This document shows positions 12,572-58,772 of a stretch of DNA of 64,000 nt, piece after piece. The first letter of the stretch is position 1; the number at the start of each line of letters is the position of its first letter. Below the pieces are notes generated by a model. The model saw only the letters and a list, made by a program, of their open reading frames with translations. It searched no databases and had not been told where the DNA came from. A program made the translations under genes and the position numbers. Location: positions 2,916 through 66,915 of IMG/VR virus record IMGVR_UViG_3300047469_000054, one strand, 5' to 3'. Source of the stretch: a virus.

Positions 12572-12582
12572 GGAGATAAGGC

Positions 12583-13035
12583 ATGAGTGGACGCGAAGTA
12601 CGTAAGGTTCCAGCAAGTTGGATTCACCCGCGATACACGGCTGACGATGCGCCATTTCAACAGGCTATTGGGCGCTATATTCCGCTTGATGTTGGTTATA
12701 ACGGTAATGCTTGTAGATGGATAGATGAAGCAGAGCGCGACCTACAATCTGCGCTTGATAATTACGGCAATCCTCCTGACAAGAATAAATACATGCCTGA
12801 ATGGCGCGATGAAGAATGTACGCACTTCATGATGTATGAGACGACATCAGAGGGGACGCCGCTAAGTCCGCCAATCGATACGCCTGAACATCTTGCGGAA
12901 TTTCTGGTAACTACAGGCGCTTGCGTGTTCGCAGACCTTACAGCCACCTATGACCAATGGCTGAAGATCATCAACGGCGGCAATGTTTCAATCACGTTAT
13001 GGCCGAGAGGAGGGCATGCATATGAAGTGCTTTAA
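12583..13035 (+). CDS. Conserved phage hypothetical protein
   Basis: GREVRKVP..W.HP and MYETTSEGTP.SP motifs recalled from many phage proteins; GAGGAG RBS. Confidence 0.6.
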   Translation: MSGREVRKVPASWIHPRYTADDAPFQQAIGRYIPLDVGYNGNACRWIDEAERDLQSALDNYGNPPDKNKYMPEWRDEECTHFMMYETTSEGTPLSPPIDTPEHLAEFLVTTGACVFADLTATYDQWLKIINGGNVSITLWPRGGHAYEVL

Positions 13036-13384
13036 GTGCGATGGTTGCGGTAAGTTAGCTATGAATCCGGCTGCATACCTAGCTGAGATTCGCGAGAAGC
13101 CGTGCGTCATCTCTTGTTGTCCAGAGACGGATTTTAAGCCGTATGATACGGGTGAATATGATCTAAAGAAGATGCACTTCATTGAGAGTGCGGCCTCTGA
13201 CCCAACTAATAAATTCTGGATAGATGATTCGTTTACATGGTCAGATTCTCCGCAGGGATTGTTATTTTGGTGCGACAAGGCCAATAAGCACAAGGATGGC
13301 CAAAACATAGGCCAGCCAGCATTCAACGCAATCACTGACATGATTCGTCAGAACCGAGAGGAGAAAACCATTCATGGCCGGTAA
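13022..13384 (+). CDS. Hypothetical protein
   Basis: N-terminal CxxC; F.WSDSPQG..FW motif. Confidence 0.5.
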   Translation: MKCFKCDGCGKLAMNPAAYLAEIREKPCVISCCPETDFKPYDTGEYDLKKMHFIESAASDPTNKFWIDDSFTWSDSPQGLLFWCDKANKHKDGQNIGQPAFNAITDMIRQNREEKTIHGR

Positions 13385-14183
13385 ACGCAAACCAGATTAC
13401 GACCCAATGGCGGTTGGCGCAATGCATGCAGAAAATATAGCAGCCATTGCCGAGTATGAAGGGCAACCGGCGAAGGGTCACAACAATCCTCCTGACGACT
13501 TCGCGGAGCGCAAAGCTACAGCACTGAAGGCGATTGACGACCTTTACGATGAAGCCGTCAACTGGTGTGACGGGGAGCCGATCGCATCAGAAGAAATGCA
13601 CGATGGCGTCACTAAGCTTTACGATGGCCTGACGGCTGCCGCCAAGCTTGCCGATTGCCTTCGAGTCGAGGAAAAAAAGCCACTTGATGACAAGGTGGCC
13701 GCTATTCAGGCTGAATTCAATCCGTATATCCAAAAGGATCGAGGTAAGGTCGATAAGGCCAAGAAGTCCCTTTCTGAATTGCTTACCGTATGGCGCAAGA
13801 AGGTTGCCGATGAAAAGGCCGCAATTGCCGCCAAGATCGCCGCTGAAGCCGCTGAAGCCAGAAGGCTAGCGGAAATTGCCGTTCGCTCATCCACGGGCAA
13901 CCTCATGGCGCGAGATGAGGCTGAAGACGAACTGAAAGAGGCCAAGGCGCTAGAGAGGGAAGCGACGCGCGCATATAAAGGCGCCACTACCGGCCTGGGC
14001 TTGCGGACGGTCACAAACGTAAAGCTTAAGGATGATCCTGAAGATGGCATGAATTGGGCATTTGATTTCGACCCGGAGCGGTTCTATGCTATAGCTGAAG
14101 AAATTGCAGCGGAGCATGTTAGAATCAATAAGCTTGATGGGCTTGTTGGATTTAACATCATTAAAGAGAAGCTTGCGCGGTGA
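13374..14183 (+). CDS. Coiled-coil phage protein of the recombination module
   Basis: GHNNPP motif; R.EEKKP...GK coiled coil; GAGGAG RBS. Confidence 0.6.
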   Translation: MAGKRKPDYDPMAVGAMHAENIAAIAEYEGQPAKGHNNPPDDFAERKATALKAIDDLYDEAVNWCDGEPIASEEMHDGVTKLYDGLTAAAKLADCLRVEEKKPLDDKVAAIQAEFNPYIQKDRGKVDKAKKSLSELLTVWRKKVADEKAAIAAKIAAEAAEARRLAEIAVRSSTGNLMARDEAEDELKEAKALEREATRAYKGATTGLGLRTVTNVKLKDDPEDGMNWAFDFDPERFYAIAEEIAAEHVRINKLDGLVGFNIIKEKLAR

Positions 14184-43211: not shown

Positions 43212-45182
43212 TTGAAAACGCATCGTGCTTATTCGCTGCTTTCCGTAAATAACGTTGTAAAGGCCGTAAAGGCCGGTAGCGATACCGAACAGCGCATTAT
43301 TTCCGGCATTGCAACGACTCCGACGCCTGACCGCGTTGGGGATATTATCGATCCGGCTGGCGTTTCTTTCAATAATCCTCTCCCGCTTCTTTGGCAGCAT
43401 ATGCATTCCATGCCAGTTGGTACCGTTGTTTTCGGCAAGGCTACCGATAAGGGAATTCCTTTTACTGCTACTCTTCCTGTTGTTGAGGAAGAGGGAAATT
43501 TGAAGCAGCGGGTTGATGAAGCTTGGCAGAGCGTCAAATTAGGTCTTGTACGGGCTGTATCAATTGGGTTTCGACCCATTGAATTTAGCTTTCTCGATAG
43601 CGGAGGCGTCCGTTTTACGGAGACTGAAGTTTTCGAATTGTCTCTGGTAACTGTTCCTGCAAATGCAGAGGCTACCATTGACGTTGTAAAAAGCATTGAC
43701 GCAAAGGTAATTGTTGCCGCTAGCGGAGCAAAGAGCGTTAAGGCAAAAGAGGTTACGAAGTCTGGACGCGTTGTCTTGACGAAAAGCAAGGAGAATAAAT
43801 TGGACTACGCCAAACAGATCGCAGAATTCCTGGAAACCAAGGCTGCAAAGATTGAGGCTGCAAACGCCCTTCTTGAAAAGTCTGCTTCCGCAACTCTAAC
43901 CGATGAAGATTCGGCAGAGTACGACAATCTCAATGTTGAGATTGACTCCATTGACGCACATGTGAAGCGTCTTGAACAGGCGCAGGCTCGTTCTAAGGCT
44001 TCCGCTGTTGCCGTCGATACTACTAAGACCGCTGCTGCTGCTGCTGCTGCCCGCGCTGGCGTCCATGCCGTCGCTAAGGCTCCCAAGCTGGAAAAGGGTA
44101 TCGAGTTCGCACAGTTCGCCATCTGCCTTGGTGCGGCTAAGGGTAGCCTACTCCAGGCTCGCGAAATCGCGCAGACTCGTTTCGTAGGCAATGCTGACCT
44201 GAATGTGGCGATTAAGGCTGCCGTTGCTGCCGGTACTACCACGGACGCCACTTGGGCCGCCCCTCTCGTTGACACCTATCAGCGCTTTGCTGGTGATTTC
44301 ATCGAGTTCCTTCGTCCGCAGACCATTCTTGGTAAGTTCGGAACGGCTGGCATTCCTTCGCTGCGTCGCGTTCCGTTCAATATCGAAGTTGCTGGCCAGA
44401 CTTCTGGCGGTAATGGTTACTGGGTCGGTGAAGGCAAGCCGAAGCCGCTGACCAAGTTCGATTACGCTAACGTTACGTTGCGTTGGGCCAAGGTCGCAAA
44501 CATCGCCGTTCTGACTGAAGAGCTTCTTCGGTTCTCCAATCCTTCGGCAGAAGCACTGGTTCGCGACTCGCTGGCTGCCGCTCTGATTGAGCGCCTGGAC
44601 ATCGACTTTATCAATCCTGCCAAGGCAGCCGTTGCTAACGTGTCTCCGGCTTCGATCACCAACGGCGTTGTTGGTATCCCGTCGTCTGGCAATGATGCTG
44701 CCGCCGTTCGCAATGATATTGCCGCCGTATTTGGCGCCTATATTGCCGCGAACATGACGCCTACTTCTGGCGTCTGGATTATGCAGGCTACCACTGCCCT
44801 GGCTCTGTCTCTTATGCAGAACCCGCTTGGCCAGTCTGAGTTCCCCGGCATCGGTATGAATGGCGGTACGCTGTTTGGCCTTCCTGTCATTGTTTCGCAG
44901 TATGTTGCCGCTGGCAACGTTATTCTGGCGAATGCTCAGGACATCTTTTTGGCTGACGATGGTCAGATCATGATTGATGCCTCGCGTGAAGCGTCGCTTC
45001 AGATGGATAATGCGCCTGCAACTCAGGACGCAACGACCGGCGCAGGCATCGAGCTTGTTTCGATGTTCCAGACCAATAGCGTTGCTATCCGCGCTGAACG
45101 CTGGATTAACTGGCAGAAGCGCCGCGCTGGTGCCGTCGTTCTTCTTACTGGCGTTGCCTGGGGCCAGCCTGAAACCCCGTAA
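43212..45182 (+). CDS. Prohead protease - major capsid protein fusion (HK97 fold)
   Basis: Protease motifs DRVGDI, LLWQH, SIGF, ELSLVTVPAN, then a coiled-coil delta domain and capsid (WVGEG..KP, FQ.N.VA.RAER). Confidence 0.9.
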   Translation: MKTHRAYSLLSVNNVVKAVKAGSDTEQRIISGIATTPTPDRVGDIIDPAGVSFNNPLPLLWQHMHSMPVGTVVFGKATDKGIPFTATLPVVEEEGNLKQRVDEAWQSVKLGLVRAVSIGFRPIEFSFLDSGGVRFTETEVFELSLVTVPANAEATIDVVKSIDAKVIVAASGAKSVKAKEVTKSGRVVLTKSKENKLDYAKQIAEFLETKAAKIEAANALLEKSASATLTDEDSAEYDNLNVEIDSIDAHVKRLEQAQARSKASAVAVDTTKTAAAAAAARAGVHAVAKAPKLEKGIEFAQFAICLGAAKGSLLQAREIAQTRFVGNADLNVAIKAAVAAGTTTDATWAAPLVDTYQRFAGDFIEFLRPQTILGKFGTAGIPSLRRVPFNIEVAGQTSGGNGYWVGEGKPKPLTKFDYANVTLRWAKVANIAVLTEELLRFSNPSAEALVRDSLAAALIERLDIDFINPAKAAVANVSPASITNGVVGIPSSGNDAAAVRNDIAAVFGAYIAANMTPTSGVWIMQATTALALSLMQNPLGQSEFPGIGMNGGTLFGLPVIVSQYVAAGNVILANAQDIFLADDGQIMIDASREASLQMDNAPATQDATTGAGIELVSMFQTNSVAIRAERWINWQKRRAGAVVLLTGVAWGQPETP

Positions 45183-45212
45183 TACGGTGATCCTTTTGGA
45201 TTAAAATTGAAT

Positions 45213-45248
45213 GGGCCGCTCTGCTCTGGCAAGGGCGGCCCTTTTTTC
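45213..45248 (+). terminator. Terminator after the capsid gene
   Basis: GGGCCGC...GCGGCCC followed by TTTTTT. Confidence 0.7.
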
Positions 45249-45264
45249 ATAAAGGAGATAGACT

Positions 45265-45609
45265 ATGCATAAGATTATTGTAACGGTAAAGGTGGCTCAT
45301 ACTGGAATGGGTATGTGGCGGGCCGTTGGCTCTACGTATGCCGTTGAGCGTTCGTATGCCAAGATCCTCCGGGCCATCGGTAAGGTTGACTACAATGACG
45401 CTGTGGCGCCTTCTGCGTCTGATGCTGTCATCTATCCATCTAGCGGAGAGTTGGCGTCCGTTGACGCTCTCAGGGATGAATATGAACGCATTAGCGGCAA
45501 AGAAGCAGACAAGCGCTGGAAAGCTCCGCGCCTTGCTGCCGCCATTGCTGAGATTGGCGCAAATACGCCTGAGCTTGATGTGGGCGAAAAGCAAGGCGAA
45601 GAAAATTGA
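45265..45609 (+). CDS. Head-associated hypothetical protein
   Basis: AAGGAG RBS; C-terminal LR.EY....GK..D.RW....L motif. Confidence 0.55.
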   Translation: MHKIIVTVKVAHTGMGMWRAVGSTYAVERSYAKILRAIGKVDYNDAVAPSASDAVIYPSSGELASVDALRDEYERISGKEADKRWKAPRLAAAIAEIGANTPELDVGEKQGEEN

Positions 45610-46817
45610 TCGGATTTGCTGAATTCATCAAGGAAATTTCTGCTGTTGGAGATGGCAGCGGGGATGCGGTGAATCCAATTATTCCTAGCGTTGGAATTCT
45701 TGCCGCCAATAGAACGCAATACAAGACGAACACAGCCAGCATTACCGCTCCGTTTACATCTCGGCGCATGCATTACGCGCACCCTGACGGTGACATTTCA
45801 GATATCCAAACGGTAGATCTTAATAGTTTCCTGGCTGGAATTTCGACGGCATCAAATGGGCCGGTACACAACATAAAGAGATTCATTGAGTATCCGCAGG
45901 GAGTCTTTACTCCGGTTTTATGGGGTGGACTCGATGTGGTTTCTCTTTCTGCCGGTGGAAGAATTAAGTCTGACATTGTCGCCGGACTAACTATTCCGGC
46001 TGGAGAAAAGTTTTGGGAACGTACGGTCATATTGACAAGCGGAAACATCCCCGTTTGCGTTATGCCCGCTGCGTCTAGCGCTATTGGCGTTGATGATGGC
46101 AACATCTCCGGTGATTTCGGTAATTCAGGTGCGATTGGCCCGACTACCGGCCTAAATACAATCGGATGTCAGGCTATTGTTGGCACGGTAAATGCTACCG
46201 ATGCTAGGAGCTTCGTCCTTCTTGGTGACAGCTTGACGTTTGGCGCGCTGGATATTACCGGATCTGGGCCAAAGGGAGCATCTGGTTTTGTCGCCCGCAT
46301 GCTGGATGATCATGGCTACCCGTATATGAAATGGTGCATTGGCGGTCAATATCTCCAGAACCAAGTAACCATGGCATCTAGAATCAATGCGGACATTGGT
46401 CAATTCAATTTCTCCGATTTCATCATTGCGTCAGGTCTCAATGATCTTAGTCTCGGTAGCCGGACAAAGGCACAGGTATTGGCCGATATCCAGACGATGG
46501 CAACTCAAACTAATGTTGCTGGAAAGCGCGTGTGGAAGACGACTATTACGCCAAGGTCTTCCTCTACGGATAGTTGGGCTACGGTGGAGAATCAATTGCC
46601 TCGCACGGATGGAAACATGGCGGATCTGATTCCTCTTAATGCCGATATCCGCGCCGGACTTCCTAATGTCTATGGGTTCATTGATGCCGCTGATGCCGCA
46701 ATGAGCGCTAGAGATAGCGGAATTCATAAAGCCCCACCAGCGGGAACTACAGATGGAACGCACTTCAATTCAGTTCGAGCCGAATTGATTTCGTCTCTTA
46801 TCGGCGTGGAAATTTAA
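45606..46817 (+). CDS. SGNH/GDSL esterase, probably virion-associated
   Basis: GDSL, G.ND and DGTH blocks intact. Confidence 0.8.
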   Translation: MIGFAEFIKEISAVGDGSGDAVNPIIPSVGILAANRTQYKTNTASITAPFTSRRMHYAHPDGDISDIQTVDLNSFLAGISTASNGPVHNIKRFIEYPQGVFTPVLWGGLDVVSLSAGGRIKSDIVAGLTIPAGEKFWERTVILTSGNIPVCVMPAASSAIGVDDGNISGDFGNSGAIGPTTGLNTIGCQAIVGTVNATDARSFVLLGDSLTFGALDITGSGPKGASGFVARMLDDHGYPYMKWCIGGQYLQNQVTMASRINADIGQFNFSDFIIASGLNDLSLGSRTKAQVLADIQTMATQTNVAGKRVWKTTITPRSSSTDSWATVENQLPRTDGNMADLIPLNADIRAGLPNVYGFIDAADAAMSARDSGIHKAPPAGTTDGTHFNSVRAELISSLIGVEI

Positions 46818-46915
46818 TTAGCATCATGGGCTAGATGCTGTGATCGGCGGATCACGTAAGAATGTTTAGCCATTTATTAATCGCGCTTATGCGCCAACAC
46901 ATGAGGACGATGTAA

Positions 46916-48904
46916 ATGGCTAAACCAGTAACGACAAGATTCGGAAATTTCGTTGTAAAGCTTGGAAACGACGCTGTGCCGATTGTGTATTCGGCGCCAT
47001 GCGGCTTTACCTCTAAATCATTGCAGCTTACAAAAGACTTGACAGAGGTTAATATTCCAGACTGCGACAATCCCGATTCTGTGGCGTGGATCGGGAGAGA
47101 CGCGGCTAGTTTGTCTGCGCAAGTAAGCGGAGACGGAATTCTGGCCTCAGAATCCGTCGATATCTGGCTTGACGCTTGGGAAAACTCGAATTCAGTTCCA
47201 ATTGAGATTTCCGTGGCCTTTCCATCAAAAACCATTGTGTGGACCGGATATGCGCAAGTTTCGGAGCTAACGATATCGGCAGAGCAGGGCGGTCGCGTGA
47301 CAATTAGCGTTACTCTGATGAGTGACGGTGAATTGACCCGTGTAAGCAATGAGACTCTTGTAACCGTATTGGCGCATAAGGTGTATGGTCCTGGTTACAA
47401 TAGCGGCGCAGCTCCACTTACCGGGGACGGCTCAGCTAAGGGCTACAATGTCATTCTTACGAATGAAACTGGAGCGCCGATTACGACGGCGTCTATTGCC
47501 CTCCAGGGCTGGACATTGACATTAGCAGGAACGACTGACACGGGGAATAGCTTTAGCGTAATCTCAAATGTGGAGTATCCAGTCGGAACTATAAGCGCTG
47601 TCTTCCCCACCACGGTTGTTCCTAGTGGGCAGAATGTTGCTACGGCTCCGATCCCGCTAACCACGCCGATTCCGATTGGCGGCGCCTTTAGGGTAACTCT
47701 TGTCAGCACTCCAGCAAATGGACAAAAATACATTGCTAATATTGGCTTTGCTGGCTTGCGCTCGCATGTGAATATTAGCAAAGCCGCCAGCGTTCGCCTT
47801 ATGGGTGTTGGTGACAGTATTATGACCAATAACGGTAGCGCTGTATATAATGCGGCAACTGGAAAGTGCCCCGCATATATAAATAGTATAATCGGAGCTA
47901 CCGCAAAATCATACGGAGATAATTCTGCTCAATATTTCGCTAGACAGGCTGATCTAGCCTCATTGCTTGGTATAACTCATATTATATCAAATTTTGGAAC
48001 AAATGATTTTGGATCATCCGACACTGTGGCGAATCTAAAGACTTATCTAGGAAATATGCGTGACGCCGCTAGGGGCAAGGGAGTCGCTTTTGTTCAGGCG
48101 ACAATCCTTCCCAGGACAAATCTCAATGTTTCCGATAACAGGATAACGGCCACGTCCGTTACCGGTTCAGGGACAACCATTAACGCAGTAGTTCCGGATG
48201 CAAGCAAGTTCACCGTTGGTCATCCATACTTCTTTGCGGGCGCTACTCCAGCCGCGTATAACGACATAAAGATATGTACCGCCATCAACACTACTACGAA
48301 CACTGTATCATTCAAGTTCGCAGGATCGGGCACGAGTCCGGCAACCGGAACAATAACAATTGCGCCGACATATGTGACGCAGAGCGTTGGTTTCATGACG
48401 CCATTTAATTCATATTATACGGCTGGTATCGCATCTCCTCGCGGTCAAATAAATGCTTGGATACGAAGTGGGGTATTCGATGGATATATTGATTGGGCCG
48501 ATGCTGTCGAGCCGACGCGAGATAGCGGTCGCTGGAAGGTATCTGGTGAAGACGCGCTATTGCCAGCAACGCAAACCGTAACTGTGTCCGCCGTAGTTAG
48601 TACTACTGTGTTCACGTCAGATTACAATCGTGGCGTCGGCACAATGGCGTCAGGCCTTGTGCAGCCAATCACCGGCGCCAACGCTGGTCAGGTGGCTGGA
48701 GCAACGGGAAACACATCAACCAATATCACCTTGCTTGCTGCGTTCTCTGCCGCTCAGGCTATAGGAGATACATATTATTGCGTCCCTAAGCCATTCTATA
48801 TGTCGGCAGATGGTGCGCATCCCGCCGCTAGTGTGGGCGGCAAGGGAGGGCAAATTCACATAGACAATGCAACCTTGTCCTGGATTAACGCGGCGCTAGC
48901 TTGA
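46916..48904 (+). CDS. Tail-tube-protein paralogue fused to an SGNH esterase
   Basis: First ~144 aa are ~80% identical (hand count) to 53817-54263; then GDS, GTND, DGAHP. Confidence 0.8.
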   Translation: MAKPVTTRFGNFVVKLGNDAVPIVYSAPCGFTSKSLQLTKDLTEVNIPDCDNPDSVAWIGRDAASLSAQVSGDGILASESVDIWLDAWENSNSVPIEISVAFPSKTIVWTGYAQVSELTISAEQGGRVTISVTLMSDGELTRVSNETLVTVLAHKVYGPGYNSGAAPLTGDGSAKGYNVILTNETGAPITTASIALQGWTLTLAGTTDTGNSFSVISNVEYPVGTISAVFPTTVVPSGQNVATAPIPLTTPIPIGGAFRVTLVSTPANGQKYIANIGFAGLRSHVNISKAASVRLMGVGDSIMTNNGSAVYNAATGKCPAYINSIIGATAKSYGDNSAQYFARQADLASLLGITHIISNFGTNDFGSSDTVANLKTYLGNMRDAARGKGVAFVQATILPRTNLNVSDNRITATSVTGSGTTINAVVPDASKFTVGHPYFFAGATPAAYNDIKICTAINTTTNTVSFKFAGSGTSPATGTITIAPTYVTQSVGFMTPFNSYYTAGIASPRGQINAWIRSGVFDGYIDWADAVEPTRDSGRWKVSGEDALLPATQTVTVSAVVSTTVFTSDYNRGVGTMASGLVQPITGANAGQVAGATGNTSTNITLLAAFSAAQAIGDTYYCVPKPFYMSADGAHPAASVGGKGGQIHIDNATLSWINAALA

Positions 48905-49065
48905 TGTTGCATGATGCCATATGCCTAATAGGCGCGACTGTCTGTATTGTCATTCTGGTCGCGCTTATATTGCTAGCATGGAGTTCAGTCGCCTTGATGG
49001 TTGTAGCGCCGTGACCAATTAATGAAGACAGCGAGATTATATTTCGTTCTCAAAGGAGAATATTT

Positions 49066-50445
49066 ATGAAGAAAACAACTGGCCTCATTGGTCGTTTTAA
49101 AAAGGCGTGGGGAACACTACTTTCGCCAAGCTCTACGGGCGGATGGTGGCCGGTGGTCAAGGAAGCATTCGGCGGCGCTTGGCAAAACAATATTGAAATT
49201 AGGAATGATCAAATCACGGCTTATCACGCTGTGTTTGCTTGCGTCACATTGATCGCATCAGATATTTCCAAGCTTGGAATTGATCTTATTCAGAAGTCTG
49301 GCGGCGCTTGGGTGCCAACAACGAATAACGCCTACTCTCCAGTTCTTAGAAAACCCAATAAGAACCAATCTAGAATTCAATTTATTGAAAATTGGATGCT
49401 TTCAAAGCTGTTGACTGGAAACACTTATGTCCTGAAGATTAGGGACGGGCGGGGAGTAGTGACCGGACTCAAGATTCTTGACCCCATCAATACGAAGCCA
49501 TTGATTTCTCCAGATGGAAGTGTTTTCTACTCAACGTCGGAAGATAATTTCAATGGTCTGACGAGTGGTGATGTTGGCGAGGCTTTCCCCGCCAGCGAGA
49601 TCATTCATGATAGATTCAATTGCATGTTTCATCCTCTTATCGGCGTGTCTCCTCTTTATGCATGTGGACTTGCCGCAATGCAGGGATATTACATTCAAAC
49701 AAGCCAAACTAAATTGTTTGAAAATGGCGTACAGGCTCCGGGCATCTTGACCGCTCCTGGCGCCATTGGCGACGCGACGGCGGCTAGGCTAAAGGCGCAT
49801 TGGGAAGAGAACTATACCGGTGAAAAAAACTATGGTAAGGTTGCCGTATTGGGCGATGGGCTTAAGTTCGAAAAAATGTCCATGACGGCGGCAGATTCGC
49901 AGCTTATCGAGCAATTGCGCTGGACGGCTGAAGTTATTTGTTCTGTTTTTCACGTTCCTCCATACATGATCGGCGTTGGCGAAGCGCCGCCATATACCAA
50001 TATTCAATCTGTTAATATGCAATACTATACTCAGGCATTGCAGAATCCAATTGAATCCATTGAGCTTTGCCTTGATGAGGGGCTTAACCTGCCTTCAGAT
50101 ATTGGCGTGCAGATGGACATTGATGGCCTATTGCGCATGGATGAGCAGACGCGCTCAACTACGTTGACCAATTATTCCAAGGCTGGCGTTTTGAAATTGA
50201 ATGAAGTTCGTAATAAGATTGGATATCAGAACATGGTAGGTGGTAATTCTGCCTTCCTTCAGCAACAGAACTTTAGCGTTACGGCCTTGGCTAAGCGCGA
50301 TGCCGGTGCCGATCCATTCGCTACAGCGCCAGCACAGCCAGTGCCATCTACGGATACAAACGACAATGGCGACAATCAAGATGCAGCAAAGCTTTTTGAG
50401 CATATGTCAAAGTCTATCAAGGAAGGAATTCGCTTTGAAATTTGA
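49066..50445 (+). CDS. Portal protein (HK97 family)
   Basis: AVFAC..LIA.DI.KL, P..N......F, GN.Y, EIIH.R, G.SP, EVIC.VF.VPP. Confidence 0.92.
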   Translation: MKKTTGLIGRFKKAWGTLLSPSSTGGWWPVVKEAFGGAWQNNIEIRNDQITAYHAVFACVTLIASDISKLGIDLIQKSGGAWVPTTNNAYSPVLRKPNKNQSRIQFIENWMLSKLLTGNTYVLKIRDGRGVVTGLKILDPINTKPLISPDGSVFYSTSEDNFNGLTSGDVGEAFPASEIIHDRFNCMFHPLIGVSPLYACGLAAMQGYYIQTSQTKLFENGVQAPGILTAPGAIGDATAARLKAHWEENYTGEKNYGKVAVLGDGLKFEKMSMTAADSQLIEQLRWTAEVICSVFHVPPYMIGVGEAPPYTNIQSVNMQYYTQALQNPIESIELCLDEGLNLPSDIGVQMDIDGLLRMDEQTRSTTLTNYSKAGVLKLNEVRNKIGYQNMVGGNSAFLQQQNFSVTALAKRDAGADPFATAPAQPVPSTDTNDNGDNQDAAKLFEHMSKSIKEGIRFEI

Positions 50446-51931
50446 TACATTCGAGGCCATCGAAAAGGCCATGGAAAATATTAAGTCTGCAATTACGAAG
50501 ACGGTTGAGCCAATCGTAGTTGAAGTGCGTGCCGTTAAGGCGGCCATTGGCGATGCTGTTTCGCGTATCGGTGAAGTTGAGGTGCTGGCCTCCAGACTTG
50601 ATAATCATCTTACAGAAGCCAATGAAACGGCCGCCGCTGCACTTGAGACATCTATGGAGGCCGTTAAGACGGTTGAGCAGATTCGTGGCGAATTCGGCAC
50701 GTTTGCTGATGACGCCGTGAGGATCATTGATGAACGCGTGGCGACTATTGAGGTTAAGCATGGCGTTGATGGTAAGGACGGCACTAACGGCCTAAATGGC
50801 GATCATGCGCCCTTTGTCGAGAGCGTGTATAATGATGGCGGCCAACTGCACTTCGTCATGTCGGACGGCAAGTCATTCGCCATTACTGCCCCGTCAGATG
50901 GTGAAGACGGCAAGGATGGCGTTGGTATTCATGATATTGACATTAATGAAGCTGGTGAGCTTTTCTATGTTCTTACGAACAATAAGGAAGTTGCATTCAA
51001 CATCGGCAAAGTTCGCGGCGAAGATGGCGATAGCATCACATCTGCTCACGTTGATGTTGATGGCAAGCTTTCTTTCGGGACGGCAAGGGGTAAGACGATT
51101 GACGTTGAGGATATTCGCCTTAAGGCCGATGTCGTTAACGGCGTTGATGGTAAGGACGCTCCGAAGATTGAGAGCATTTCTATCGCTGATGATTCTCGTG
51201 AAATCGAGATTGTCCTGTCAGATGGTGTGAAGCACTTTATTCCAGCACCAAAGGACGGCAAGGATGGCGTTGACGGTAAAGATGCCCCGGCCATTGAAGT
51301 CGTGAAGAAGACCAGCGAGGGCCGCTTGGTCTTCGGCATGTCAGATGGAAAATCATTCGAGATTGATGCACCAAAGGACGGCAAGGATGGCGTTGACGGA
51401 ACCAATGGCTTGGATGGCGTTAATTTAGTTGATGCCCTGATCGACTCTGAAAATCGCCTTGTTCTAACGACATCCAACGGAACCGTTAAGACTCTTGATG
51501 TCGTCGTCGGCTCCGATGGTAAGGACGGCGTTGATGGCGCCCCAGGTAAAAATGGAGCCGATGGCTTTGGCTTTGATGACATGGCTATGGAGTATGATGG
51601 TGAGCGCGGCCTTTCTATCGTGTATTCTCAGGGTGACCGCGTGAAGTCTATTGACTTTCATTTGCCTATTCCAATCTATAGGGGCCAATTTGATTCGGCT
51701 AAAAGCTATGAGCGCGGAGATATGGTCACACACTTTGGTGCCGTGTATCATTTCGATGGCGGTGATAATGGCATCCCTGGTTCAGCCAAATCTTGGCAAT
51801 TGTCTATCCGCGCTGGTGTCGATGGCAAGGCGGGTGCGCCCGGTACACCTGGGAAGCCGGGAAAGAAGGGCGAGACCGGTCGCCCCGGTAGAGATCTTAC
51901 GCAGATTGGCCCTGATGGGAGTAAATGGTAA
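50435..51931 (+). CDS. Collagen-like DGKDG-repeat structural protein (head fibre/decoration candidate)
   Basis: Multiple DGKDG/G-X-X runs alternating with beta modules; Y.G.F.....Y.RGD.VT; TTG start overlapping the portal end. Confidence 0.7.
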   Translation: MKFDTFEAIEKAMENIKSAITKTVEPIVVEVRAVKAAIGDAVSRIGEVEVLASRLDNHLTEANETAAAALETSMEAVKTVEQIRGEFGTFADDAVRIIDERVATIEVKHGVDGKDGTNGLNGDHAPFVESVYNDGGQLHFVMSDGKSFAITAPSDGEDGKDGVGIHDIDINEAGELFYVLTNNKEVAFNIGKVRGEDGDSITSAHVDVDGKLSFGTARGKTIDVEDIRLKADVVNGVDGKDAPKIESISIADDSREIEIVLSDGVKHFIPAPKDGKDGVDGKDAPAIEVVKKTSEGRLVFGMSDGKSFEIDAPKDGKDGVDGTNGLDGVNLVDALIDSENRLVLTTSNGTVKTLDVVVGSDGKDGVDGAPGKNGADGFGFDDMAMEYDGERGLSIVYSQGDRVKSIDFHLPIPIYRGQFDSAKSYERGDMVTHFGAVYHFDGGDNGIPGSAKSWQLSIRAGVDGKAGAPGTPGKPGKKGETGRPGRDLTQIGPDGSKW

Positions 51932-52251
51932 TGGCAGATCCAATCGACATTGTAACGCTTGATCAGGCTAAGCGCCGCCTTCGCATCCTTCATGCGGATG
52001 AAGATGCATCAATTGAGGAGATGATTACTGAGGCAAGCGCCGCAATTCTGGATTACATTAAGGCCGCCGATGATGCAACATGGACATCAGTGCAAATGCT
52101 GTGTCTGAAAACGGGAACATTGAACATGGTGCAATGGCTATATAATGGGTCGCCAAAGTCATCCGATGAAGACATTGGGCAGGCAGACGGATATCTTCCC
52201 AAGAGCGTAACTATGTTCCTCCATCGCCTTAGAGATCCGGCGCTAGCATAA
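51931..52251 (+). CDS. Head-tail connector (HK97 gp6-like)
   Basis: VTL.QAK..LRI....ED..I......AS..I.DY...LP..V...L..LRDPA. Confidence 0.8.
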   Translation: MADPIDIVTLDQAKRRLRILHADEDASIEEMITEASAAILDYIKAADDATWTSVQMLCLKTGTLNMVQWLYNGSPKSSDEDIGQADGYLPKSVTMFLHRLRDPALA

Positions 52252-52433
52252 TGGCATGGGTGAGGTTTACCCAAGATTGGCCATGGATGAAGCCGCGCTT
52301 CACTGTGGCATATAAGCGAGGCATGGTGCAGAACATAACGCGCCAATGCCTTGCGGACGCAACGAAAGCGGGGGTGATTGTGCGCCTGTATCGAAAGAAC
52401 AAGAATGATCCATTTTCGGAGATTGAGCCATGA
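52251..52433 (+). CDS. Small neck-region protein
   Basis: Coupled ORF in the neck module. Confidence 0.5.
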   Translation: MAWVRFTQDWPWMKPRFTVAYKRGMVQNITRQCLADATKAGVIVRLYRKNKNDPFSEIEP

Positions 52434-52780
52434 GACCAAGCGGAAGATTTCTTTTGAGCTTTCAAAAGCGAGGCGATGCCGATGACGGATTTGGGAATAT
52501 CCTTCCGGGCGCCGGAGATTTTGCAGAAGCATTTAAGGCATACGCCGATATGTCGCCAATGCGCGTTGGAAGCGAGGCGGTTATTGCGGCCCGCTTGGCA
52601 GGAACGCAGCCGCTTAACGTTCGCATCATTGCCAGTGAGGCCGCGCGCACAATGAATTCTGCTTGGCGGGCAGTTGATGTTAGGAATCCATTGCGACAAT
52701 TCAACATCACGGCGATTGTCGATCCTACTGGCGAGAATAAATATCTCGATATTGCCATGACCGAAGGCGTTGTGCAATGA
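52430..52780 (+). CDS. Head closure / head-tail adaptor
   Basis: DDG.GN, G.E.V.A.RL.G.QP, WR..D.R, FNI..I.DP. Confidence 0.75.
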   Translation: MRPSGRFLLSFQKRGDADDGFGNILPGAGDFAEAFKAYADMSPMRVGSEAVIAARLAGTQPLNVRIIASEAARTMNSAWRAVDVRNPLRQFNITAIVDPTGENKYLDIAMTEGVVQ

Positions 52781-53283
52781 CGATTAAGGGGCTTACATCT
52801 CTACAGCGGAAACTAAGGGCACTCCCTACGGTGGCCCGCACGGCTATTCAAGATGCCATGGAGAAGTCGGCGCAAGAGATTGTCGATATGATGAAGGGTC
52901 TCGTTGTCGTTCGTGACGGCCACTTGCGCGATTCCATTGGGTGGACATGGGGAAAGGCTCCAAAGGGTTCGCTTAAGGTTGGTGCGATTATGGGTGGGAG
53001 TTCGGCTGATTTGATCATAACGATTTATGCGGGTGATGCTGAAGCCTTTTATGCTCGCTGGATTGAGTTCGGCACATCTCCTCACAGTACAGCAAAGGGC
53101 GGTGGAACGAAGGCTGGTAAGAAATCCTTGGCGCGCGGCGGCGGTATTCAGCACCCCGGCACAAGAGCGCAGCCATTCTTTTTTGTCAGTTATCGCGCGA
53201 ATAAAAAGCGTGCAAAATCTAGAATAACTAGAGCAGTAAACAAGGCGGGCCGCACGGTCGCCGCGCAAGGAGGCGGGAAGTAA
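52777..53283 (+). CDS. HK97 gp10-like neck protein
   Basis: GL..L..KL, G.LRDSI, FYA.WIEFGT, A.PFF. Confidence 0.8.
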   Translation: MTIKGLTSLQRKLRALPTVARTAIQDAMEKSAQEIVDMMKGLVVVRDGHLRDSIGWTWGKAPKGSLKVGAIMGGSSADLIITIYAGDAEAFYARWIEFGTSPHSTAKGGGTKAGKKSLARGGGIQHPGTRAQPFFFVSYRANKKRAKSRITRAVNKAGRTVAAQGGGK

Positions 53284-53729
53284 TGGCAGACCCAATTAAC
53301 GAGCTTAAGGCGAAAGTTTTCGCCACCTTAAAGGCAAGCGCGCCACTATCCGCATTAGTTGGCAGCCGCGTGTATGATGTTGTGCCGGTCGATCCGAATA
53401 CGTTTCTTTACACCGGTCAATATCCGTATGTGGCTCTAAGCAACACTGATGCGACCGAAGATAGCGCAGACTGCATCAATGCTCTGGATATCTCGATGCA
53501 GATAGACTTCTATACCTATGGCACGGGTCCCGCATACTCCACGGCGCAAGCGTCGGCTGGTGCAGACCTTGTTCGCCGCGCCTTAAAGCCGCTGTCGCTT
53601 GATGAGGAGGCGCTTCCGACAAACGCATTGTCAGCTTTCGAGCATCGCATAACTCGCCTGATTAGGGCGCAAGATGGACTTACGACGCAGGCGGCGATTA
53701 CATACGACGCCATTGTTGAGGTTCTATAG
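53283..53729 (+). CDS. Tail terminator (DUF3168-like)
   Basis: L.ALVG.RVYD.VP...YPYV. Confidence 0.75.
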   Translation: MADPINELKAKVFATLKASAPLSALVGSRVYDVVPVDPNTFLYTGQYPYVALSNTDATEDSADCINALDISMQIDFYTYGTGPAYSTAQASAGADLVRRALKPLSLDEEALPTNALSAFEHRITRLIRAQDGLTTQAAITYDAIVEVL

Positions 53730-53816
53730 CAACTACTGTATTTTTCATCAAAGATGTTGATGTTTGGCAATCATTTTGCAAGTTATCAACAGTGCACACA
53801 CAAAAGGAGAATATGA

Positions 53817-54263
53817 ATGGCAAAGCCAGTAACAGCCCGTTTTGGCAATTTTACGGTTAAGCTTGGCAACGATGCCGACCCAATCGTTTATGTCGCGCCT
53901 TGCGGCTTCACTTCCAAATCGCTACAGCTTACCAAGGATCTAACGGAGGTTAACATCCCCGATTGCGACGACCCGGATGCAGTATCGTGGGTAGGCCGTG
54001 ATGCGGCGAGTCTTTCTGCTCAGGTTACTGGCGATGGCGTGCTAGCTTCCGAGTCTGTCGATACTTGGCTTGAGGCCTGGGAAAACGTCGAGAGCGTTCC
54101 GATTCAGATTTCGATTGTCTTTCCGGCCAAGACTATTACTTGGACAGGCTTCGCTCAGGTGTCTGAGCTTACGATTGCCGCAGAACAGGGTGGCCGCGTG
54201 ACTATTTCCACGACTATCCAGTCAGACGGCGAGCTTGTTCGCGTTACGACTCCGACGCCATAA
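53817..54263 (+). CDS. Major tail tube protein
   Basis: AAGGAG RBS; APCG.TSK, .PDC..PD...W, SDG; canonical position. Confidence 0.85.
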   Translation: MAKPVTARFGNFTVKLGNDADPIVYVAPCGFTSKSLQLTKDLTEVNIPDCDDPDAVSWVGRDAASLSAQVTGDGVLASESVDTWLEAWENVESVPIQISIVFPAKTITWTGFAQVSELTIAAEQGGRVTISTTIQSDGELVRVTTPTP

Positions 54264-54826
54264 TGAGGGATGCAAAGCTAGAGACTGATTTTGGTGACGG
54301 ATCATATGTCTTTCGCCTTCCGTGGGGTCTACTAGTTGAGCTTCAAGAAAAGCTTGAGAGCGGCCCATATGCCGTTTTCAAGCGTCTTCTTGGCGATGAT
54401 TGGCGCGTAGAGGATATCTCCGAAACGATCCGTCTTGGCCTTATTGGCGGGGATAAGGATATCAAGCCAATCGCCGCCAATAAGCTTGTGACTCGATATG
54501 TTAGGGAGCGTCCGCTTGCGGAGAACGTTCCGTTGGCTCGCGCCATTCTTCAGGTCGCATTATTCGGCGCTGGAGATGAGGAGGACAAACCAAAGGCAAC
54601 GGAAAAGTCTGATGAAGTCGAAACTTCAGATGGCAAGCTGAACATGAAAGCCATTTATGGAGCTGGTGCAGCCATTGGATTCAGTCCGCAACAGGTAAAT
54701 GAAATGTCGGTTTATCAGTTCATCGCTGCCGTTGATGGGTATGTGTCCGCTCACTCCCCGGAAGACAAGACTCTTACGGATGATGAAAAGAAAGAATTGT
54801 TCGATCTAGTAATTGAGCATTCATAG
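54263..54826 (+). CDS. Tail assembly chaperone (GTA-gp10-like), apparently G and T parts in one frame
   Basis: FGDG.Y.FRL....L.ELQEK...GP, IRLGLIGG; C-terminal IYG.GA.IGF.PQQV..MS..QF. Confidence 0.7.
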   Translation: MRDAKLETDFGDGSYVFRLPWGLLVELQEKLESGPYAVFKRLLGDDWRVEDISETIRLGLIGGDKDIKPIAANKLVTRYVRERPLAENVPLARAILQVALFGAGDEEDKPKATEKSDEVETSDGKLNMKAIYGAGAAIGFSPQQVNEMSVYQFIAAVDGYVSAHSPEDKTLTDDEKKELFDLVIEHS

Positions 54827-54882
54827 GATTTTGCCAGTCCATTCGTGGGCTGGCAGTTCTCATTTATGGAGACATTTAAATA

Positions 54883-57048
54883 ATGGCCGCAACAGACCTT
54901 GAAAAGCTTGTAGTTCAGCTTTCCGCAGACATTACGAAATATGAGAAGAGCCTAAATAAGGCGCTGTCCCAAACTAATTCTAACGCCTCCAAAATGGAGA
55001 AGCGTTTTAAATCCATGACTACAAGCATTAATTCCTCATTGAATGGCATCGGTGGCAAGGGATTTGCCTTGGGTAGCGGCTTTTTGGCTGGCGTTATCAG
55101 CGTTGATAAGATCGCGCAATATTCTGATGCGTTTACGACTATTCAAAACTCGCTGAAGATTGCTGGCCTACAGGGGGAAGAGCTTAATTCAGTATTTGAA
55201 AAGCTCACAGCTCAGGCACTAAAGAATCACGCGCCCGTTGATGACTTGGCTAAGCTTTATGGCAAAGCGGCCATGCAGCAAAAGAATCTCGGAGCGTCAT
55301 CGGAAGATCTGCTAAAGTTCACTGACGCCGTAGCTGCGTCATTGCGCGTTTCTGGCACGTCGGCCCAAGACGCTAGCGGCCCGTTGCTCCAGCTTGCGCA
55401 ATCGCTTGGTACTGGTCGCGTCATGGCCGAAGAATTCAATTCTGTTCTTGAGGGTATGCCAGCTCTTGCGGGTGCTATCGCTAACAACATCAAGCAGGCG
55501 AATGGAAGCATCGGCACGCTAAAACAATTAGTGTCTAGCGGCGATATCTCCAGTCGAGCGCTCTTTGACGCGGCAATCCAAGGCGCGCAAGAGCTAAATG
55601 ATAAGGCCAATCTAGCCGGGACTACGATTTCGCAAGCCATGACTGATTTGCGCACCAATCTTATTGTTGCGGTCGGTGGCTTCAATGATGCTACACATGC
55701 TAGTGATTTCTTGGTTAAGGCCATTCAAGACCTTGGCAATGATTTAAAGGGCGCAATTACCGACGTCGAAAATCTTGTAGTGTCGCTTCAAGGCCTAGCA
55801 CCTGGGCCTGCCATCCAAGAGTTGATTACCGGCATTAACGGCGTTGGCCTTGCCGCTCGTGATGCATATGCGCTTGTGCGTCAGCTTGCGGGCGGCGTTG
55901 CGGCTGAAGTCAAAGATAATCTCATGCCAGATCAAGCGGCAAGAGATAGAGAGAGCGCTATTCTAAGCGTTTATACGCCAGATCAGGCGGCAAAGGACAA
56001 GGCCTCTGTTCAGGATACGCTTAATGCCATCGACAAGATGGCTGCTGATAATGCTGAAAAGTTTGATGCGCTTCCCGCCAATGGGCCGCAACCGACATCA
56101 AGGCCAAAGCCGACACCAATTGACCTTGATGATCCAAAGTATGCTGTTCCTGGCCAGAAAGACAAAGCCGGAAGCGGTAAAGCCAAAAAGGAAAAGCTTG
56201 ACGCATATCAGAAAGAAACGCAATCCATCAAGGATCGTACAAACGTTCTGAATGCGGAAACGGCTGCGCAGGCGCAAGTTAATCCGCTGGTTGATGACTA
56301 CGGCTATGCGCTTGCAAAGGCCAAGGCTCAGCAGGACCTTATTAACGCCGCTACGAAGGCGCACAAGCCGATCACGGATGAAATGCGTGCTGCTATCGAC
56401 CTGACGGCGGAAGCGTATGCTCAGGCAAGTGTAGAGGCTGAAAAGCTTGCGGAGAAGCAGAAGAAGGTAAAGGAAACGCAGCAGGAGATTTCCGATACCG
56501 CTAAGGATGTTACGCGCGGTATTGTTGATGGCTTCATCGCGGGTAAAAGTGCCGCAGATATCTTTTCGGACGCATTGACAAAGATCGCGAATAAGCTTCT
56601 CGATTCCGCCTTTGATTCTCTATTCGATTCCAAGTCTAGCGGCGGCGCAGGCTTGGGAGGCGCCATCTCTAAGTTGTTTGGCTTTGCCGATGGCGGCTAT
56701 ACAGGTCCAGGCGGCAAGTATGACGCGGCTGGTATTGTGCATAAGGGCGAATATGTTATCCCTGCCGATAAGGTGAGAAAGATGGGCGTCGGCGGCATTG
56801 AAAGAATGCTTGATGGCTTTGCCGATGGCGGCCCGGTTCAAGCCCCGCGAATTTCCAAGGTTTCGCCTGGAGCGTCTTCTGGTAACGGCTTGTCAATTAA
56901 TTATTCACCCACATATGATAATCGTGGGATTGATTCCGATAGGCTGGCAAGGCTAGAGCAGATCCAAGAAAAAGATAGAAGTGAATTTGCTAGCCGTACC
57001 GTTGATACAATCCGCAAGGCTAGAAATAATAATGTAAAGGGAATCTAA
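54883..57048 (+). CDS. Tape measure protein
   Basis: DLE.LVV.LSAD; tape-measure domain (QL.Q.LG.G....EEFNSVLE.MP); FADGGYTG.GGKY..AGIVH.GEYV. Confidence 0.9.
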   Translation: MAATDLEKLVVQLSADITKYEKSLNKALSQTNSNASKMEKRFKSMTTSINSSLNGIGGKGFALGSGFLAGVISVDKIAQYSDAFTTIQNSLKIAGLQGEELNSVFEKLTAQALKNHAPVDDLAKLYGKAAMQQKNLGASSEDLLKFTDAVAASLRVSGTSAQDASGPLLQLAQSLGTGRVMAEEFNSVLEGMPALAGAIANNIKQANGSIGTLKQLVSSGDISSRALFDAAIQGAQELNDKANLAGTTISQAMTDLRTNLIVAVGGFNDATHASDFLVKAIQDLGNDLKGAITDVENLVVSLQGLAPGPAIQELITGINGVGLAARDAYALVRQLAGGVAAEVKDNLMPDQAARDRESAILSVYTPDQAAKDKASVQDTLNAIDKMAADNAEKFDALPANGPQPTSRPKPTPIDLDDPKYAVPGQKDKAGSGKAKKEKLDAYQKETQSIKDRTNVLNAETAAQAQVNPLVDDYGYALAKAKAQQDLINAATKAHKPITDEMRAAIDLTAEAYAQASVEAEKLAEKQKKVKETQQEISDTAKDVTRGIVDGFIAGKSAADIFSDALTKIANKLLDSAFDSLFDSKSSGGAGLGGAISKLFGFADGGYTGPGGKYDAAGIVHKGEYVIPADKVRKMGVGGIERMLDGFADGGPVQAPRISKVSPGASSGNGLSINYSPTYDNRGIDSDRLARLEQIQEKDRSEFASRTVDTIRKARNNNVKGI

Positions 57049-57700: not shown

Positions 57701-58332
57701 TGCCAAGGAATATTTCAGCTGCAAACCTATTGGCGCTTCAGCAAGGACTCTTGGTATTTAGAGACTTTGTGTCGATTACAGCTAGAGTCATGGGGTCATC
57801 GGAAACCGTTCGCGATGACATGTGGAGCGACTACGGTAACGTATCTGCGCAAATCATCAATCCTAATACGGGGGCCACGGAAAGCAGAGACTTCTATGGT
57901 TCAGGAACAATCATTTCCATTGATGATATTCCGATGACATCAAACCTTCAGGCGCAAAACGTAAATATCAATATGGGGCAGATCAATGCTCACGTTGAAA
58001 ACCTATTGCGCGGATACGATCTTAGGCAGGCGCCGATAGAAATATATCGCGGCTTTTTCGATCCATCTAGCCGCCTTATGGTTGCTCCAGCTGAAGCTAG
58101 GTTCGTTGGATTTATCGATAGCGTTGAGATTGATACTCCAGCGGAGAATGAGTTCGGAAACGCCATTGCTACTTGCGTTAGCAACACGCAGGAAATTACA
58201 CGCGCAAACTCTGAAACTAGGTCGCAGGCTTCGCAGGCCGTACGCGTTAGCAATGATGGCTTTTTCAACGATAGCGCCACAACTGGAAGTTGGAAAGTAT
58301 GGTGGGGTTCCGTTAAGGGCAAGGTGTCCTAG
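57700..58332 (+). CDS. Tail tip / hub protein
   Basis: Position; F.G.G..I.I..I, F.G.ID, RS..SQ..R...DGFF, WG. Confidence 0.6.
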   Translation: MPRNISAANLLALQQGLLVFRDFVSITARVMGSSETVRDDMWSDYGNVSAQIINPNTGATESRDFYGSGTIISIDDIPMTSNLQAQNVNINMGQINAHVENLLRGYDLRQAPIEIYRGFFDPSSRLMVAPAEARFVGFIDSVEIDTPAENEFGNAIATCVSNTQEITRANSETRSQASQAVRVSNDGFFNDSATTGSWKVWWGSVKGKVS

Positions 58333-58772
58333 TGGCAGTTCGTAAAGCCACCAGGGGCGATGTGTCCACGATCGTTCGCATGGCCGAAATGTTCCATGGG
58401 GAAACTAGATATCCAACTTCATTCAATGATGGCCGAGTAGAGGCTCTAGTGTCAAGAATGATCGGAACATCATCCGCAGTCATATTCGTCGCTGGTGAGC
58501 CTGCCTGTGGTTTCCTGGCTGCATTTAAGGACGTATCTCCCATGACGGGCGAACACTTTGCTAATGAGATAGCCTTTTGGGTTGATCCGTCGCATAGGCG
58601 CGGCAAATATGGTGCCGCGCTCATTGATGCTTATGTTGATTGGGCTAAATCTAATGGATGCGCAGTCGCTAGATTGACGACGCAAGAGAATATGCGTCCG
58701 GAGTTGGTTGAAAGAGTTTATGGCCGTTTTGGATTCGGAAAGCAAGAGACTGCATTTATAAGGAGGCTATAA
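58332..58772 (+). CDS. GNAT acetyltransferase inside the tail module
   Basis: VRKAT..D, E.AFWVDP.HR.G..G..L, Y.R.GF...E. Confidence 0.75.
   Translation: MAVRKATRGDVSTIVRMAEMFHGETRYPTSFNDGRVEALVSRMIGTSSAVIFVAGEPACGFLAAFKDVSPMTGEHFANEIAFWVDPSHRRGKYGAALIDAYVDWAKSNGCAVARLTTQENMRPELVERVYGRFGFGKQETAFIRRL

Follow-up and report, generated by a model that had tools for sequence, protein, structure and literature searches.

Tail tubes of phages carry small sugar-binding domains that help the particles to skim along cell surfaces, and to our knowledge only spikes, fibres and baseplates have been found to bear enzymes by which the polysaccharides of the surface are cleaved or deacetylated. The gene considered here (46916..48904, + strand) lies in a stretch of 64,000 nucleotides from an uncultured phage of soil (the window, i.e. 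bases 2916-66915 of the 66,915 bp IMG/VR record IMGVR_UViG_3300047469_000054), and encodes a copy of the phage's major tail (tube) protein (MTP), followed by a beta-sandwich and an SGNH esterase.

Siphophage tube proteins form stacked hexamers, from which C-terminal Ig-like domains point outward in lambda, T5 and YSD1, and a review of tube decoration (PMC8718954) reports that such Ig-like or FN3 domains are thought to bind surface carbohydrates; its main text uses the word 'enzymatic' 0 times. The same review describes SPP1 as mixing plain and FN3-extended subunits in a ratio of 3:1. In SPP1 (gp17.1*) and in lactococcal phages, plain tube proteins occur together with C-terminally extended forms that gain an FN3 or carbohydrate-binding domain by frameshifting, as described in PMC8718954, PMC7533335 and PMC6669499, and the outward extension meets host carbohydrates (PMC8718954); the same layout is proposed for the fused protein. 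Unlike in gp17.1*, however, its extended form comes from a separate, diverged gene instead of a frameshift, and the extension is an enzyme module of 515 amino acids rather than a binding domain of about 100. Lambda gpV, T5 pb6, the YSD1 tube protein and the 242-amino-acid members of the Phage_tail_2 family resemble the fusion in that a domain is joined directly to the C-terminus through a short linker, but in lambda gpV, T5 pb6 and YSD1 it is the tube protein itself that is decorated, with a non-enzymatic domain. Compared with decorated tubes in general, the fusion has the extra domain at the C-terminus of a complete tube domain, and lacks both the small Ig-like, FN3 or carbohydrate-binding module and the expression from the MTP gene itself.

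SGNH deacetylases on virion spikes or fibres have been described in the petal domain of epsilon15 gp20 and in G7C gp63.1; in the former, an added beta-barrel forms a sugar groove, and the paper also compares the epsilon15 domain with the carbohydrate esterase PbeAcXE (bioRxiv 10.64898/2026.07.31.742079). Together with SGNH receptor-binding proteins of Klebsiella prophages, these are comparable by description, as they place an SGNH domain with a beta-barrel on the virion, where it deacetylates surface polysaccharide. They are, however, anchored at the tail tip by the N-terminal domains of spikes and fibres, whereas the anchor in the fusion would be a tube domain. A second tube gene as such is not new: like the phage of the window, certain actinobacteriophage clusters have two tube-protein genes and a fused capsid-protease (PMC11080557), although these 'two major tail proteins' are likened here by description, are reported at the level of annotation, and come with no mention of an enzyme domain in the passage concerned. 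New, as far as the CC-licensed PMC and bioRxiv literature shows, is the enzyme on the tube domain.

The fused gene and its parts

The gene is one uninterrupted open reading frame (ORF) with an ATG start, encoding 662 amino acids, and lies between the protease-capsid gene (43212..45182) and the portal gene (49066..50445), 6.9 kb upstream of, and separate from, the MTP gene (53817..54263, +). The latter encodes 148 amino acids within the tail module, where it is preceded by genes for Phage_connect_1, Phage_HCP, HK97-gp10_like and Tail_completion_gp17 proteins, and followed by a chaperone-like gene, a TMP_3 tape measure, the distal tail protein and a Phage-tail_3 host-specificity protein. The record has direct terminal repeats and is rated 100% complete, all large ORFs of the window are on the + strand, and the fusion and the MTP are the only two tube-like places in the whole genome.

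Residues 1-147 of the fusion (46916..47356, +) align to the MTP without gaps (BLASTP, 119/147 identities, 133/147 positives, E 3e-87). The initial annotation had already recognised a diverged MTP copy here, which holds, although the likeness extends to residue 147 instead of 144, and the differences number 28 rather than about 26. Both proteins belong to the family PF06199 (Phage_tail_2, gathering score 23.8): the fusion scores 63.1 bits over residues 9-142 (profile positions 4-132 of 132), and the MTP 67.2 bits. The fused tube domain also matches the major tail protein family phrog_13196 (E 3e-22).

Structure prediction adds little for this domain. The full-length model is poor over residues 1-290, with a predicted local distance difference test (pLDDT) value mostly <65 in residues 1-147. 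An Atlas model in which residues 1-149 align to a TP901-1-family cluster at a TM score of 0.96 is a lead only, and sequence searches of the PDB, both with the MTP and with a profile of 60 sequences, gave no solved relative (best E 0.41-0.64, i.e. chance matches). A predicted complex of four MTP and two fused tube domains, run without controls, scored 0.25 against a mark of 0.32, which speaks neither for nor against binding.

The remainder of the protein consists of a beta-sandwich (residues about 148-290; 47357..47785, +) and an SGNH core with two beta-rich inserts (residues about 291-662; 47786..48901, +). Residues about 148-662 have matches in 50 other proteins, at 37-56% identity, and the conserved core of this esterase family starts at around residue 148 (..LVTVLAHKVYGPGYN..). 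Because the N-termini of the homologues ahead of this core are short and variable, or Ig-like, it seems that a variable leader has been replaced by the tube domain. The junction falls exactly at the domain boundary, and some six residues separate the final strand of the tube domain from the opening strand of the beta-sandwich.

For residues 144-662, a model based on 51 sequences is of high confidence (pLDDT 93.9; predicted TM score 0.90) and all-beta in its first domain; this beta-sandwich is followed by the SGNH core, which is broken by inserts at residues ~398-488 and ~538-623, whose limits are approximate, having been taken from the DSSP assignment of the model. The beta-rich domain and the inserted domains of the initial annotation are thus present in the model. 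In a structure search of the all-against-representatives kind, the best solved match was a polyvinyl-alcohol esterase (9kqz_A; Z 23.7, 303/391 residues, root-mean-square deviation 3.5, model residues 1..518), followed by the carbohydrate esterase PbeAcXE (7tog_A; Z 22.6, 300/378 residues aligned), both being likenesses of fold only, at 16-18% sequence identity. The beta-sandwich and the SGNH core align jointly to these two, in which an N-terminal beta-sandwich is likewise packed on the SGNH domain (~300 residues superposed), but the two additional beta-rich inserts of the phage module, of ~90 residues each, set it apart from them. In line with a flavodoxin-like SGNH fold, plain SGNH chains match at Z 12-17.6, the upper value being that of 4rsh_A (166 residues aligned, root-mean-square deviation 2.2), and Foldseek with the first model returned TesA and similar enzymes (E 4e-5 to 1e-3). 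Among predicted viral structures, the nearest are SGNH proteins of rhizobiophages and Xanthomonas phages, with SGNH proteins labelled as tail fibre or minor tail lower down.

The catalytic blocks that the initial annotation had described as intact are so: G299-D300-S301, G327, G361-T362-N363-D364 and D632..H635 (DGAH) are invariant in alignments of both 15 and 51 sequences, and they supply the Ser (S301), Gly (G327), Asn (N363) and Asp..His (D632, H635) of SGNH blocks I, II, III and V, the assignment of G327 to block II being our own call by position. Six of 23 scanned homologues (P0049, P0189, P0178, P0200, P0209 and P0293) also show weak similarity, in the region of the second beta-rich insert, to PF09356 (Phage_BR0599), a domain known from GTA-type tail proteins; these matches (E 1e-4 to 9e-3) do not exceed the cut-off, and the fusion protein itself has no PF09356 match at E <= 0.01.

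Constraint, origin and abundance of the tube copy

At the DNA level the fused copy and the MTP gene agree in 299 of 441 bases (68%), and this agreement is distributed over codon positions 1, 2 and 3 as 118, 129 and 52 of 147. By the Nei-Gojobori method, the proportion of nonsynonymous differences (pN) is 0.153 and that of synonymous differences (pS) 0.844; the latter is saturated, so that the comparison of dN and dS proposed in the initial annotation yields a low pN but no dS and no exact ratio. Of the 114 conserved residues with more than one possible codon, the two copies share the codon at 40, compared to 41.6 (standard deviation 4.9) expected if codons were drawn independently from the codon usage of the phage. 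Since the synonymous sites are saturated and the count of shared codons is at chance level, the two tube copies are old, with the protein kept by selection. Selection for synonymous divergence as a guard against recombination between the copies was also considered and dropped, as the count of shared codons equals chance and plain saturation is enough.

The pattern of protein changes points the same way. At positions that are at least 95% conserved in 119 other MTPs, the fusion keeps 56 of 59 (the phage's own MTP 58), and at those at least 80% conserved it keeps 76 of 96 (own MTP 83), while all 32 invariant columns of a 60-sequence MTP alignment survive the addition of the fusion. The changes fall on more variable columns (mean column entropy of 1.12 at changed versus 0.63 at unchanged positions). 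The N-terminus (MAKPVT) is the same in fusion and MTP, there are zero changes in residues 27-51, and the 28 changes are not clustered (6/50 in residues 17-66 versus 22/97 elsewhere, Fisher p 0.13). Judged by its sequence, the fused tube copy is under purifying selection, as had been suspected from the synonymous changes.

The fused domain and the resident MTP are nearest to each other (81% identity), the next best MTP being 70.7% identical to the fusion. In an MTP tree from a quick search on 62 of 121 available rows, the two group with one long-branch sequence (SH-aLRT 94), and seven residues common to both are rare (<=5%) in the 119 other MTPs. The tube domain thus appears to share its origin with the resident MTP, with which both a duplication within the genome and a very close donor phage would fit. 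In the ribosome-binding region of the fusion gene (46890..46915, +), as aligned with the bases upstream of the MTP gene, 16 of 26 bases agree (alignment, invariant columns 42-66), which is a weak hint that a duplication included this region. A scan for promoters and terminators around the fusion gene gave no clear signal, the sole convincing terminator-like site nearby being at 45221-45243, after the capsid gene. Of the data sets listed as containing the locus, none was of RNA. An internal start at M135, which would yield an esterase without the tube domain, was considered, and no Shine-Dalgarno-like sequence was seen by eye ahead of it in the alignment.

Codon usage differs between the genes. 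Codons ending in A make up 5% of the capsid gene and 12% of the MTP gene, versus 24% of the fused tube domain and 21% of the esterase part, and, with the capsid gene as reference, the MTP has a codon adaptation index of 0.59 and the fused domain one of 0.36; the figures for the latter rest on 147 codons and are a modest hint. Compared to the esterase genes (21-24%), the capsid and tube genes avoid codons ending in A, which amounts, in this single genome, to a clear codon bias linked to expression. Its absence from the fused domain suggests a minority role for the fusion protein, and the same is suggested by geometry, as rings spaced roughly 4 nm apart would leave no room for a globule of 56 kDa on each subunit.

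A possible place in the tail and its alternatives

Following these results, the favoured explanation, to which about even confidence can be given, is that the fusion is a tube subunit of low abundance, by which an O-acyl esterase for polysaccharides is exposed on the outside of the tail. Residues 1-147 would act as a working tube domain, replacing the normal MTP at some positions of the hexameric rings, and the outward-facing C-terminus would bear the 515-residue module (i.e. the beta-sandwich and the SGNH domain with its two extra beta domains). Most of the tube would consist of plain MTP, encoded by its separate codon-optimised gene, so that a few esterase molecules would sit on the tail surface, where they could strip O-acetyl or other O-acyl groups from host exopolysaccharide, capsule or lipopolysaccharide as the phage works its way through. 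As decorated tubes and virion-borne SGNH deacetylases both exist, a position in the tube with the esterase on the outside is the most likely one for the protein. With confidence somewhat short of even, it may further be proposed that the tube itself is an enzymatic surface with scattered esterase subunits, their ratio being set by a paralogue with weak codon bias instead of by frameshifting.

Rhizobial polysaccharides are acylated, and the fold neighbours are esterases of this kind; by analogy, the enzyme probably acts on O-acetyl or other O-acyl groups of the host's exopolysaccharide, capsule or lipopolysaccharide. The host is probably a Rhizobium or a close relative, since the best named MTP homologues come from Rhizobium genomes and the sample is a rhizosphere metagenome. 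The Phage_tail_2 family tolerates additions at the C-terminus: the members of 242 amino acids carry an extra C-terminal domain (Ig-like by eye), which in P0130 is joined at the same point as in the fusion, after ...DGELTRV, and S-l_SbsC_C or CBM_X2 domains are present in Atlas clusters of PF06199 proteins. Together with the solved siphophage tubes (covered in PMC8718954), these bear out the initial statement that C-terminal extension of tube proteins is established.

Several observations nevertheless weigh against a working tube subunit with an esterase on it. In the tube domain, D52N and V75I hit positions that are at least 95% conserved, and A101, M135 and E146, which are found in the fusion only, occur in 0 of the 119 other MTPs. 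The fused copy has also changed faster, with 14-16 unique changes versus 3-4 in the MTP for five outgroups (binomial p 0.004-0.03; with outgroup P0107 the counts are 10 and 5, which is not significant) and end branches in the tree of 0.22 versus 0.035, and this faster change may represent relaxed constraint. Steric hindrance is possible as well, the linker being ~6 residues and the 515-amino-acid cargo about 5x the size of known tube decorations. As to the enzyme, the esterase part is filed under SGNH by fold and motifs and not by profile, because its match to Lipase_GDSL_2 (18.1 bits, E 0.004) is below the gathering cut-off of 32.9, a shortfall that is due to the sequence being too diverged and interrupted by inserts. 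In other phages, moreover, the homologues of the esterase part occur in varied genome contexts and lack a recognisable virion anchor, which means that this module is not necessarily part of virions in general.

Rarity is a further point on this side. Of the 50 further proteins homologous to the esterase part, 0 have a tube domain, and in five related phage records, of which four are 95-100% complete, there is at most one tube match each and no esterase, in keeping with the initial remark that a separate, enzyme-bearing paralogue is unusual. An exhaustive search of 1.84 billion representatives gave 439 matches, and among the best 150 of these 439, which were the ones listed, the architecture was found in 0 of the 149 other representatives; within this list the esterase matches start at query residue 129 or later (at least 129), and all tube matches have at most 236 amino acids. 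No tube family was found by a Pfam scan of 20 long esterase matches. A search for longer MTP relatives returned just the fusion itself and one protein of 553 amino acids (a truncated tube domain with a lambda-type portal), which is probably a mis-call. Scans with the fusion of genome contigs and metagenome contigs gave pattern matches and no confirmed relative, megablast against GenBank phages gave nothing, and in the CC-licensed PMC and bioRxiv literature no description was found of a tube protein joined to an enzyme, be it an esterase or another. By these sequence searches the fusion architecture is a singleton within the databases covered, and the case rests on one metagenomic genome.

Given this, the fusion could be an artefact or a recent non-functional accident (e.g. 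through chimeric assembly, or through a deletion by which two genes became joined in a single individual genome), especially since it is a singleton from one metagenome and the only sequencing run that holds it may be the source sample. This run (X1, a rhizosphere metagenome) therefore does not provide independent data; its contigs from a second assembler (45000-51274 and 51370-55000), however, show 0 differing letters at a word depth of 80, without a variant, and since these contigs come from a different assembler, a single-assembler mis-join is ruled out. Two copies that share 299/441 bases only could not be mis-joined through a repeat, the junction lies exactly from domain to domain, and the saturated synonymous sites with a conserved protein imply a long selected history, which leaves an artefact or accident very improbable. 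Alternatively, the protein could be a soluble esterase outside the virion, made late and freed at lysis, which modifies the polysaccharide of neighbouring or lysing cells, while the tube domain serves in folding or oligomerisation or is a tolerated passenger. All 50 other homologues manage without a tube domain, as does the adjoining esterase gene Est1 (45606..46817, +), and the homologues are found after the tail fibre and endolysin genes (L006), between terminase and portal (phiM6) and among replication genes (RHph_TM16); the location in a cargo slot, which holds glycosyltransferase-like ORFs in one relative, fits this possibility too. A passenger would not, however, retain 56 of the 59 strongly conserved positions throughout the saturation of its synonymous sites, and a tube domain as close to the MTP as this (81% identity) should, if free, enter growing tails anyway, so that a purely soluble role seems unlikely.

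The remaining alternative does place the protein in the virion, but at one defined ring (by the distal tail protein or the tail completion protein), where it would form an esterase collar. Tube-fold paralogues are often specialised rings, as exemplified by the MTP-mimicking distal tail domains described for JBD30 (PMC11445458). Six modules of 56 kDa should fit one ring more easily than every ring, and the fused copy's own substitutions (the 14-16 unique changes, compared to 3-4 for the MTP) could have re-targeted it. Such a re-targeting has, however, left no mark of a changed interface: the domain is still 81% identical to the MTP, all family-invariant residues are kept, and the 28 changes are spread out (p 0.13). 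As the phage already has separate genes for the distal tail protein and for tail completion, a collar of this kind is distinctly unlikely, and a minority subunit scattered among plain MTP is still the preferred explanation.

Genomic surroundings and significance

The relatives of the phage share the gene order terminase, protease-capsid, small ORF and portal, and in seven of their loci (L093, L094, L133, L148, L096, L097 and L106) the gap between capsid and portal is ~0.4 kb in five, ~0.64 kb in L096 and 2.6 kb in L094, where it contains glycosyltransferase-like ORFs (12020-14140). In the window the gap is 3.9 kb and contains orf114, the 403-amino-acid SGNH esterase Est1 and the fusion. The initial annotation had placed the fusion in the head module; it lies between the capsid and portal genes, but because this gap varies among the relatives, the fusion is better described as cargo in a variable slot. 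Est1, which belongs to the same cargo block, has the layout of a beta domain plus SGNH without inserts and without a tube domain; it matches phrog_8480 (E 2.7e-38), has weak GDSL Pfam matches, and shows local likeness only to the esterase part of the fusion (E 0.001). A similar pair exists in Rhizobium phage P106B, where a 405-amino-acid SGNH esterase (P106B_13, alike to Est1 only remotely, E 0.005) is encoded directly upstream of the homologue of the fusion's C-terminal part. This homologue (P106B_14), phiM6 gp9 and RHph_TM16 EVB27_041 are rhizobiophage esterases, most members being 45-56% identical over residues about 148-662, and all differ from the fusion in having no tube domain.

Other features of the surroundings were seen in passing. 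The capsid gene (43212-45182, +) encodes a prohead protease and major capsid protein fused into one product of 656 amino acids. A GNAT acetyltransferase of 146 amino acids (58332-58772, +; PF00583, E 2.7e-10), curious beside two esterases, is encoded within the tail module, where the distal tail genes precede it and the gene for the 1016-amino-acid host-specificity protein follows. The ORF after the portal gene (50445-51931, +) contains many collagen-like GKDG/VDG repeats (Pfam Collagen, E 0.0016) and has PHROG matches to portal and to collagen-like minor tail families; the contig of the second assembler ends inside it (51274-51370), with a word depth there of 88.9-104.2 compared to 80.1 elsewhere, and Tandem Repeats Finder returned nothing over 50200-52000. 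In one relative whose MTP is 77% identical, a 574-amino-acid ORF (L133:17353-19077, +) lies directly upstream of the tube gene; its N-terminus resembles tail fibre or spike proteins by eye, and it may be another way to add a side appendage near the tube gene.

Acetylated exopolysaccharides of rhizobia matter in symbiosis and in phage resistance, and an esterase-bearing tube would be a new adsorption aid against these bacteria. If the proposed role is correct, it would extend tube decoration from binding to catalysis, with the fusion as the first known case of an enzyme within a tube protein, and the mixed tube, built from two genes, would represent a new genetic route compared to frameshifting. 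The fusion would then also be a natural template for the display of large cargo (56 kDa) on siphophage tails.

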